Source: a virus
Taxonomy: Duplodnaviria > Heunggongvirae > Uroviricota > Caudoviricetes
DNA length: 55,890 nucleotides
IMG/VR virus record: IMGVR_UViG_3300044719_000150
Direction: 5' to 3' (one strand)
The first letter of the stretch is position 1. Every line of letters begins with the position of its first letter. The notes below the pieces were generated by a model. It searched no databases. It saw only the letters and a list, made by a program, of their open reading frames with translations, and was not told the origin of the DNA. A program made the position numbers and the translations under genes. Positions 28,324 through 51,763 of this stretch are shown one piece after another.

Positions 28324-28599
28324 ATGGAAGCCGCAGTCCCTCCCTACAGGGCCGACGCCAACGCCGCCGCGCAGTCCGTCGGTGAGCTGTACCTGTATGT
28401 CAAGCAGCTGACCACTCGCATCGGTGAGATCGCCGATCAGGCCAACCGCGTCGATGACGTGCGCCTGGAGCTGGAGAAGCGCGTGGAGCAGCTCACGACC
28501 GAGCTGGCCGAGGCCCGCAAGCACAACGACGACCTGCGCACCCGCATCGACGAACTGCTCGCCCGCGAGGACGACGCGGACTGCGACTGCTGCCGCTAA
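28324..28599 (+). CDS. Coiled-coil protein
   Basis: ATG after GAGGAG; heptad-rich. Confidence 0.7.
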   Translation: MEAAVPPYRADANAAAQSVGELYLYVKQLTTRIGEIADQANRVDDVRLELEKRVEQLTTELAEARKHNDDLRTRIDELLAREDDADCDCCR

Positions 28600-50249: not shown

Positions 50250-51233
50250 TTGTCTGCTTTTACCAAAGAACCCGGAGCACCCGCCGTAAGCGGCATCTCC
50301 ATCGCCGAATTGCTGGAGCGGGACGGCGTCGATGTCAATCGCGACATCGCCCAGGCGTGGCTGAATACATACAACAAGCAGAATCGGGACCTCAAGCCCG
50401 CGCGCCTGGCCCGCTACACCCGCGACATGGCCAACGACCGCTGGCTGCCCGAGGGCGAACCGATCCGCTTCGACGAGGACGGCCGTCTAGCCGACGGCCA
50501 GCACCGGCTCGAAGCCCTCATCCGCGCTTCCATCCAGCGCGAGCAGCGCGGGGTCTCCGGACCGGAGTGGAGCTTGAAGTTCCTGGTCCTGACCGACCTG
50601 CCCCGCGAGACGCGCCTGGTCAGCGGCACCGGCGCGCCCAAGACGCTCCAGGACGCGGCGCTGATCTCCGGCAACGTGCGCTACGCCAACAACGTGGTGC
50701 CCATCGGCAACCGCGTCTACAACTGGCTCAAGGCGCAGAACCCGGTGCCGACTGGCGGGAACCGGATCACCCTGACCGAGCTGGAGTTCGCCGACTTCTA
50801 TGCCGAGCACATGGGCGAGATCAACCGGGCGGCATACTGGGGCGGCCACCTCAAGCAGCGCATCAAGCTGCCCGCGCTCGCCGGGGGCTTCGCGTACTTC
50901 CTGATCTACGAGGCCAGCGAGGAGCACCATGCGCGCACCGACGTCGATGTGCCCGCCCTGTTCTTCTCGGCTCTGGCCACCGGCGCGGAACTGATCGAGC
51001 GGCATCCGGCCAAGACGCTGCGCGAGACGATCGCCACCCGGCGCGACAACGGAACCCTGAAGACCGACATCGCGCTGGCGCTCACCCTGCGCGCCTGGAA
51101 CGCATTCGCCGAGGAGCGGCTCTACGGGTCGGCAATCCTGCCTGCCGCGTCGGTGACCAGCGCCAACCTGGTCCTGCCGAAGGCGCCCAACCGTAACTGG
51201 AGCGGCGCGATCTACAGCCCGACGCGGCACTAG
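50250..51233 (+). CDS. ParB-like (DGQHR) domain protein
   Basis: KQNRDL...RYTRDMANDRW...EPIRFDEDGRLADGQHRLEAL; TTG start after GGGAGG. Confidence 0.75.
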   Translation: MSAFTKEPGAPAVSGISIAELLERDGVDVNRDIAQAWLNTYNKQNRDLKPARLARYTRDMANDRWLPEGEPIRFDEDGRLADGQHRLEALIRASIQREQRGVSGPEWSLKFLVLTDLPRETRLVSGTGAPKTLQDAALISGNVRYANNVVPIGNRVYNWLKAQNPVPTGGNRITLTELEFADFYAEHMGEINRAAYWGGHLKQRIKLPALAGGFAYFLIYEASEEHHARTDVDVPALFFSALATGAELIERHPAKTLRETIATRRDNGTLKTDIALALTLRAWNAFAEERLYGSAILPAASVTSANLVLPKAPNRNWSGAIYSPTRH

Positions 51234-51243
51234 CCGCTAGGAT

Positions 51244-51341
51244 GGTGGACGCCGTGGCGCAGCCTGGGCGTGACGGGTTGAGCTACCCGTCAGGGTTTCG
51301 CGGGCAAGTTCCCTGCCCCCAGGCTGCGCCACCGGCTCACC
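51244..51341 (+). ncRNA. Predicted three-way-junction structured RNA
   Basis: 15-bp stem GTGGCGCAGCCTGGG (51254-68) / CCCAGGCTGCGCCAC (51318-32) enclosing hairpins TGACGGGT/ACCCGTCA and GGGCA/TGCCC. Confidence 0.6.
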
Positions 51342-51344
51342 GGA

Positions 51345-51447
51345 CCACGTGGCTGGACCGGATGTCCAGTGGTAACTGGGCTACCCGGTAGGCACAGCCC
51401 CACTATTCGTACGGGGCGCTAAGCGGGTTCGATTCCCGCTGCGTGGA
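51345..51447 (+). ncRNA. tRNA-like RNA (acceptor stem plus canonical T-arm; non-canonical D and anticodon regions)
   Basis: CCACGTG/TGCGTGG 7-bp acceptor plus discriminator A; GCGGG-TTCGATT-CCCGC T-arm; three internal hairpins; no encoded CCA. Confidence 0.6.
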
Positions 51448-51472
51448 CTTGTCAACGCATGAATGAAAGGAG

Positions 51473-51703
51473 GTGCATTTCTTGGCACTGGCATATATTG
51501 CTTGGGTGACCGGCATGGTCCTGACCATGAAGTGGCTGGTGAACAATGTTTACCGGGATGATCTGGAGGGCCTAGCCCGGCGCCTGCTCGTGGTCATGAT
51601 GTACGCCATGGCCATCCTGTTCCCGCTCACCTGGGCCTGGGTCGCCGCCGCGCGCACCCCGCGCCTGATCCGGCGTCTGCGCCCTTACCAGCGCAGGCAC
51701 TAA
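51473..51703 (+). CDS. Small two-TM membrane protein
   Basis: GTG start after AAAGGAG; hydrophobic segments. Confidence 0.65.
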   Translation: MHFLALAYIAWVTGMVLTMKWLVNNVYRDDLEGLARRLLVVMMYAMAILFPLTWAWVAAARTPRLIRRLRPYQRRH

Positions 51704-51716
51704 CGTAGCCTGATAA

Positions 51717-51763
51717 GCTGCGGCCATTTCACCATCGAAAGCCCAGACTCTGCACGCCGCAGC
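51717..51763 (+). ncRNA. tigRNA-like guide unit
   Basis: GCTGCGG-CCA-tttcaccat-CG-aaagc-CCA-gactctgca-CG-CCGCAGC; motif copy CTAACGTAGCCT at 51700-51711. Confidence 0.88.

Follow-up and report, generated by a model that had tools for sequence, protein, structure and literature searches.

Several RNAs that are shaped like transfer RNA (tRNA) have been described. RNase P and RNase Z cut the 3′ modules of the MALAT1 and MEN-beta transcripts, mascRNA and menRNA, which depend on a T-arm and two Gs (PMC11693755). YrlA, a Y RNA of bacteria and phages, joins a long stem to a tRNA-mimic domain and can be a substrate for RNase P and CCA addition (PMC4201824). Mycobacteriophage DS6A carries a transfer-messenger RNA (tmRNA) that consists only of the tRNA-like domain (JN698994, about 28478-28557; PMC4131195, PMC11915505), and the tRNA-rich phage T4 makes RNAC and RNAD, small stable RNAs of unknown role (PMC3014915). 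Here we describe an RNA element at positions 51251-51449 (+ strand) of a 55,890-nt stretch of DNA from an uncultured phage of the Caudoviricetes (IMG/VR record IMGVR_UViG_3300044719_000150), referred to below, at its full length, as the window. The element has a structured head (domain 1) and a tRNA-mimic tail (domain 3), and it has homologs in related phages.

Like mascRNA and menRNA, the phage RNA has a 3′ tRNA-shaped module of acceptor, T-arm and two elbow Gs, which lies downstream of another structured RNA and does not encode CCA. The eukaryotic modules are about 58 nt long, whereas in the phage RNA the arms are long and variable, the head is unrelated and a middle domain is optional; there is no sequence homology between them, and processing of the phage RNA is inferred. 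Its sequence features would be compatible with RNase P and RNase Z cuts followed by CCA addition, and by analogy it most likely works like a mascRNA-type module. With the DS6A RNA it shares an actinophage origin, a tRNA-like domain with an early GG, the tail ACU and, apparently, the lack of a tag frame. However, the DS6A domain keeps G1-C72, G3-U70 and the CGAC end of the D-loop, whereas domain 3 has C1-G72, no G3-U70, a hairpin after the GG and a 2-nt connector, and is preceded by an extra 5′ domain. RNAC and RNAD are likewise small RNAs of a tRNA-rich phage, but they lie inside the tRNA region, whereas the phage RNA has its own putative promoter about 20 kb from the tRNA island (in G002, one of the homologs).

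A likeness to YrlA-type domains had been proposed in the sequence-only reading, an earlier annotation made from the letters of the window, and it failed in both topology and motif. YrlA also has a long stem and a tRNA mimic, but its order is T-arm, closed acceptor, D-arm, whereas the phage acceptor is open at the 3′ end and the T-arm comes last. The YrlA motif GNCGAAN(0-1)G, which stands beside a Ro60 gene, was absent near the 5′ end in five homologs, with one internal match in L221. No TROVE gene was detected within about 4 kb (Pfam scan of the window, genes around the homologs, and G002), which agrees with the earlier remark that the window has no Ro60 gene. The complete capsid-related phage G006 has genes for a TROVE/Ro60 protein and for an RF-1-family protein, the latter gene containing two in-frame TGA codons (G006:53800-53994, 112971-113207). 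Judged by these features, the RNA appears to fall outside tRNAs, tmRNAs, YrlA and TIGR guides. A tRNA-mimic non-coding RNA in a phage is of a known kind, while the head domain matches no catalogued family.

A structured RNA conserved in six related phages

The gap between the upstream gene and the next gene was strongly structured, as the sequence-only reading had stated: its folding z was -5.3, with 0 of 200 shuffles as good, and it was the lowest among 81 sampled windows of 204 nt (background mean -0.56, standard deviation 1.0). As both strands of the gap gave a similar z, the strand was decided by comparison of homologs. Five further distinct copies were reached via relatives of the upstream protein (L045, L046, L048, which is G002, L050 and L221), each syntenic and right after the upstream gene. 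These copies, in related uncultured phages, are the covarying homologs that the earlier annotation had proposed to look for.

The upstream protein in the five homologs is 47-82% identical to that of the window, and its close homologs taken together are 48-83% identical. Among the six sequences, pairwise identity was 43-82% for this protein and 49-73% at 4-fold degenerate sites of the neighbouring gene, compared with 90-100% for the junction motif of domain 1 and 74-96% for the fixed part of domain 3; the core of domain 1 is thus conserved far above synonymous sites. A covariance model built from five copies scored the sixth, L221, at 50 bits. In the six sequences, the cells of the closing stem P1 comprised 98 Watson-Crick pairs, 4 G-U pairs and no mismatch (102/102 paired), and 8 of its 17 pairs showed compensatory change (five sequences). 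In the acceptor and T-stem 72/72 cells were paired, with compensatory change in 3 pairs. Since the non-Watson-Crick pairs of P1 are all G-U on the + strand, this strand is fixed; an RNA from the minus strand was rejected, as the four G-U pairs would turn into mismatches. Comparison of the sequences thus shows a + strand fold in which the acceptor and T-arm are under pairing selection, and it argues that the element is a real, conserved RNA gene.

As far as sampled, the family is narrow, because wider searches gave no more copies. DNA pattern scans (four of viral contigs and one each of metagenome and genome contigs) matched only the L048 copies, coding DNA or ordinary tRNAs. No further homolog was found by blastn of phages and plasmids, nor any sequence match in annotated phages. 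With the covariance models R1 and R2, G002 was the only match in 37 capsid-related phage records, and about 50 distant ParB-like loci gave no further homolog; R1 gave none in 151 actinobacterial genomes, a weak negative since 28 candidates were scored per genome. ARAGORN made no call on the element and no Rfam model reached its gathering threshold, two checks that the sequence-only reading had suggested, and the Rfam matches at E <= 10 were at chance level. A tRNA-Sec-like GGUA D-loop was rejected (15.6 bits against a cut-off of 47), its loop not being conserved. We found no description of this RNA in the literature searched, outside which most subscription journals fall.

The head domain and its putative promoter

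Domain 1 (51251..51336, + strand) is a three-way junction closed by P1 (51251-51267 with 51319-51336). The 15-bp stem enclosing two hairpins that had been read from the window alone is present, although its conserved form has 17 bp with an invariant bulged C at 51332 and begins at 51251. The proposed start of the element at 51244 did not hold, as the outer pairing there, directly behind the -10 box, is not conserved. Within the junction, the P2 hairpin (51271..51292, + strand; pairing probability 0.99) carries the loop GAGC (51280-51283), which is invariant in five sequences and interrupted by one inserted U in L048. It is followed by the junction motif GGGUUUCRC (51293..51301, + strand), invariant apart from R, which partly pairs into an extended P3. 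The P3 hairpin (51300..51316, + strand) has a stem probability of only 0.48 and the loop GUUC (51308-51311). Probably the P2 and P3 loops kiss, GAGC with GUUC, as their sequences suggest; in L221 the P3 loop changes from GUUC to GCUC, the G-U of the loop pairing becomes G-C and the fifth pair is lost.

Several look-alikes of short motifs were not accepted. A likeness to the loop of 23S rRNA helix 71 is lost in L221, a likeness to half a parS site is found in only three homologs, and hepatitis delta virus-like and hammerhead cores were not present by inspection. The short junction motif resembles more than one known sequence (see the tmRNA and TIGR readings below), and each of these resemblances should be treated with caution.

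A putative -10 box, TAGGAT (51238..51243, + strand), with a predicted start near 51250, precedes the element. The pattern TANNNT occurs 4-8 nt before P1 in 6/6 sequences, against a background of 0.002-0.003 per position, and the DNA upstream of this box is unrelated in three of the homologs. A sigma-70 scan of the region found no promoter. From the position of the box, we infer that the RNA may have its own promoter, with transcription starting near 51250.

The tRNA-mimic tail

A linker (51337..51344, + strand) ending in the leader GGA, of which the GG at -3/-2 is invariant in 6/6, separates the two domains and is the site of the optional domain 2. In four homologs domain 2 has 89-98 nt and forms separate stems and perhaps a pseudoknot. 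The similarity of its ends to the ends of domain 3 is suggestive of a duplicate, and 5, 8, 14 and 162 of 300 shuffles were equally good. A domain 2 loop of L221 (L221:11327-11342) resembles the anti-Shine-Dalgarno sequence at the 3′ end of 16S rRNA, a likeness not conserved in the others.

Domain 3 (51345..51449, + strand; about 105 nt) has a 7-bp acceptor (51345-51351 with 51440-51446, + strand), a T-arm (51423-51439, + strand) with a 5-bp T-stem, and the tail A73-C74-U75 (51447-51449, + strand), which is ACU in 6/6. The acceptor stem, the discriminator A (A73 at 51447) and the T-arm were correctly recognised from the window, while the 3′ limit of 51447 given there falls short of the conserved end at 51449. 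The acceptor, T-stem, T-loop and discriminator of a tRNA are thus all found in domain 3, while a D-arm and a 7-nt anticodon loop with U33/R37 are not. In place of the D-arm there is a short D-strand (51352..51356, + strand), whose G51355 and G51356, at positions 11-12, are putative equivalents of tRNA G18/G19. G11 stands with U55 in five homologs and A11 with G55 in L221, and G12 with C56 is invariant. This is suggestive of a tRNA elbow without a D-stem, in which the A11/G55 change is a single event. A CUG/CAG D-stem was dropped, as L221 alters one strand without compensation.

Hairpin A (51357..51389, + strand) is one long interrupted hairpin (inner stem 0.99, outer 0.68) of variable length (15-33 nt), with two compensatory changes in the closest relative. 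Hairpin B (51396..51420, + strand), at the anticodon position, is variable with a mostly pyrimidine-rich loop, and its basal AG/CU becomes GG/CC in L048. No anticodon-type 7-nt loop (U33/R37) is conserved among the six. Of the three hairpins drawn in the tRNA-like domain by the sequence-only reading, GCCCC/GGGGC is present, while CTGGAC/GTCCAG and ACTGGG/CCCGGT, the latter around a CTA loop, are unsupported (pairing probability 0.004 and 0.007, respectively), and the closest relative lacks the CTA triplet. Its broader view, of a structured RNA that is neither a canonical tRNA nor a tmRNA and has a tRNA-mimic 3′ domain, is supported by the feature tests.

In G002, with 36 tRNA calls, 30/30 scored tRNAs encode C74 and none encodes CCA, and domain 3 is alike. 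Several T-arm-bearing look-alikes lie between the tRNAs of G002 (L250:8538-17441). Other tRNA-like elements were seen elsewhere. On the minus strand of L239, a 465-kb phage contig, one near 2826-2920 with a domain-3-like acceptor and a possible TTA anticodon was missed by ARAGORN and lies near a tRNA called as Pyl (CTA). L003:10110-10200 has an irregular anticodon arm and no ARAGORN call, and a cluster of T-arm-bearing elements, most of them not called as tRNAs, was present in a capsid-related phage (L061; G004:26069-29092).

Genomic setting

The window comes from a metagenomic contig of 119,921 nt, and the phage has a GC content of 66%. A Pfam scan (25 listed matches) identified genes for portal, tail, DnaB, SSB, Lsr2, Thg1 and RNA ligase. 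The host would be actinobacterial, given the Lsr2 gene and the GC content. None of the cultured phages is close, the best capsid match being 27%. The upstream gene (50250..51233, + strand; 327 aa), our synteny anchor, belongs to PHROG 5931 (unknown function) and its product has no Pfam match; the label "ParB-like" comes from its DGQHRL motif. Downstream, the Shine-Dalgarno sequence of the next gene (51465..51473, + strand) lies 13-16 nt past U75 in 6/6 and is mostly unpaired in the window (0.75). This gene (51482..51703, + strand) encodes a small hydrophobic protein of 66-73 aa, seen only in these phages and with no Pfam match above cut-off, and in the five homologs that have it in full it is directly 3′ of the RNA.

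Stem-loop units of the TIGR guide type were also identified. The window has one at 51718-51763 and 16 other pattern matches, and its loops are diverse, whereas G002 and L221 share the consensus CG-AAAC-CCA. One or two such units stand between the upstream gene and the RNA in L048 (8316-8360; G002:8328), L050 (11005) and L221 (10984 and 11153), the first of which follows an extended -10-like motif that overlaps the stop codon; at that place no unit is present in the window, L045 or L046. In G002, a Thg1-encoding phage, a tRNA-His at L250:11865-11937 has A73 instead of C73, which gives a eukaryote-like need for G-1 addition.

Putative processing by host tRNA-maturation enzymes

RNase P, RNase Z and the CCA enzyme read the acceptor, T-arm, elbow and N73-C74. 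These features are kept in the phage RNA, whereas the arms at the D- and anticodon positions vary freely. Since the kept features are those read by these enzymes, and decoding features are not kept, a substrate of tRNA maturation is the simplest account. The comparative evidence thus favours the suggestion, already made from the window alone, that host tRNA-maturation enzymes may act on this RNA. We propose, at roughly even odds, that the element is a phage non-coding RNA gene in which a structured head is joined to a tRNA-shaped processing tail that would recruit these enzymes.

In this proposal, transcription would start near 51250 from the RNA's own promoter, and G11/G12 and the T-loop would form a tRNA elbow in domain 3. 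Host RNase P would cut before C51345, and 3′ trimming, or RNase Z with the CCA enzyme, would mature the end after A51447-C51448, in the way that the tRNAs of the phage would be matured. The products would be a stem-protected head RNA, a non-decoding tRNA mimic of about 105 nt and a downstream mRNA with its ribosome-binding site. The head, with its compact and invariant core, would be the working part and bind a protein, which is the least certain step; its partner would most likely be a host translation or tRNA-handling factor, titrated while the phage runs its large tRNA set.

Some observations weigh against this proposal. The invariant leader GG (-3/-2) can pair with C74-U75, and such pairing might block or hinder RNase P or RNase Z. 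We found no terminator or second promoter between the RNA and the next gene, so the RNA would also be the leader of the next operon. No partner of domain 1 was identified. Finally, with only six related sequences, the covariation counts lack independence, and the elbow change amounts to a single event.

Alternative explanations

The main rival, which we consider unlikely, is a tag-less tmRNA-derived decoy that would bind SmpB and inhibit trans-translation, while a phage release-factor-like protein handles stalled ribosomes. We compared the RNA with 27 actinobacterial tmRNAs and 82 tRNAs, leaving the unpublished genomes G039 and G056 out of the tmRNA counts. The GG of domain 3, on a stemless D-strand, starts at position 11, as in 13/27 tmRNAs (at 12 in 12 and at 13 in 2); positions 11-12 are GG in five of our sequences and AG in L221. 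The T-stem GCGGG is found in 13/27 tmRNAs and 13/82 tRNAs, and removing one base from the tmRNA D-loop motif gives the sequence of the domain 1 junction (background rate about 0.002-0.01 in 200 nt). Moreover, a DS6A-like RNA reduced to the tRNA-like domain inhibits tmRNA, alanylatable or not (PMC4131195), and G002 (83% complete) has an RF-1-family gene with no tmRNA or SmpB call. However, G1-C72, G3-U70, the UUUCGAC D-loop and the GGAC connector, which nearly all of the 27 tmRNAs have, are missing from domain 3; the alanine identity pairs G1-C72 and G3-U70 are both present in 27/27 of these and in 0/6 here. Taking the SmpB contacts on the tRNA-like domain from PMC8363625, we did not find the UUCGAC D-loop together with the GGAC connector in one domain, and the equivalent of G19 by alignment is C or A, while G19C abolishes SmpB binding (PMC8363625). 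The connector-like GRAC of domain 1 is absent in the window and L045. No tmRNA match appeared at E <= 10, where a weak same-clan tRNA-Sec match could mask one. No reading frame is open across all six sequences, whose lengths differ by up to 93 nt (no dedicated test for a resume motif was made). A modular version, to which we give still less credence, is that the head places a D-loop motif of the SmpB type on a new scaffold while the tail supplies an elbow that cannot be charged, and that this tmRNA-derived RNA would shut down host trans-translation; jointly with it, the phage release-factor-like protein would rescue ribosomes untagged.

Rather improbable is a cis-acting leader, riboswitch-like or a translation switch, that would control the small membrane-protein operon. 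The RNA is always directly upstream of the same gene with a constant Shine-Dalgarno spacing and no terminator between, its loops are pyrimidine-rich, with the one L221 loop resembling an anti-Shine-Dalgarno, and the core of domain 1 shows the invariance of an aptamer. Yet the linkage is partly built in, as the homologs were found through synteny; there is no conserved anti-Shine-Dalgarno helix, the best duplexes being at differing places and the site in the window mostly free, and a tRNA-type 3′ end would split the RNA from the mRNA. We find it hard to credit an accessory RNA of the phage TIGR-TasA system, such as an anti-repeat, sponge or processing aid, although the junction motif, read as its reverse complement, gives CG-AAAC-CC, the guide loop that occurs most often (5/16 units in G002 and 6/11 in L221), and L048, L050 and L221 have a guide unit immediately before the RNA. 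The junction motif is unchanged in the window, yet 0/17 pattern matches there carry that guide loop; in three homologs an A stands at the position that requires G, a study of TIGR found no accessory RNA (PMC12045711), and no window guide matches window or L044 DNA at <=3 mismatches. The guide pattern itself (CCA-N9-CG-loop-CCA-N9-CG) has no match in the RNA on either strand. The sequence-only reading had suggested a possible decoy for anticodon nucleases, or a substrate of Thg1 or RNA ligase, both very improbable on comparison: the window does encode Thg1 and RNA ligase and the 3′ domain is tRNA-like, but nothing ties either enzyme to the RNA, the loops at the anticodon position vary freely, and the CTA hairpin is neither probable nor conserved. 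Thg1 is explained by the tRNA-His of the relative, whose A73 already gives it a substrate. Since attP sites carry a T-arm and 3′ acceptor strand, these parts, the single copy and the narrow distribution would fit an attP relic; but such a relic, a decayed tRNA or chance folding in GC-rich DNA is largely refuted by covariation and hardly conceivable, as both acceptor strands covary, domain 1 is unlike tRNA and under pairing selection, the core identity is far above synonymous identity, and the 25 Pfam matches listed for the window include no integrase family.

Implications

Although known from six sequences of uncultured phages, this uncatalogued RNA family adds two compact folds supported by covariation. 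One of them is a minimal mimic of the tRNA elbow, whose natural variants, including the paired A11/G55, show what tRNA-processing enzymes may need. If the RNA binds SmpB or another tRNA-handling factor, it would be an RNA-based means of disarming host quality control, and if the modular tmRNA-derived origin is true, it would inhibit a host pathway of quality control or defence by RNA alone, for which no equivalent is catalogued. If the RNA is processed as we predict, phages would use mascRNA-like tRNA punctuation to make regulatory RNA.
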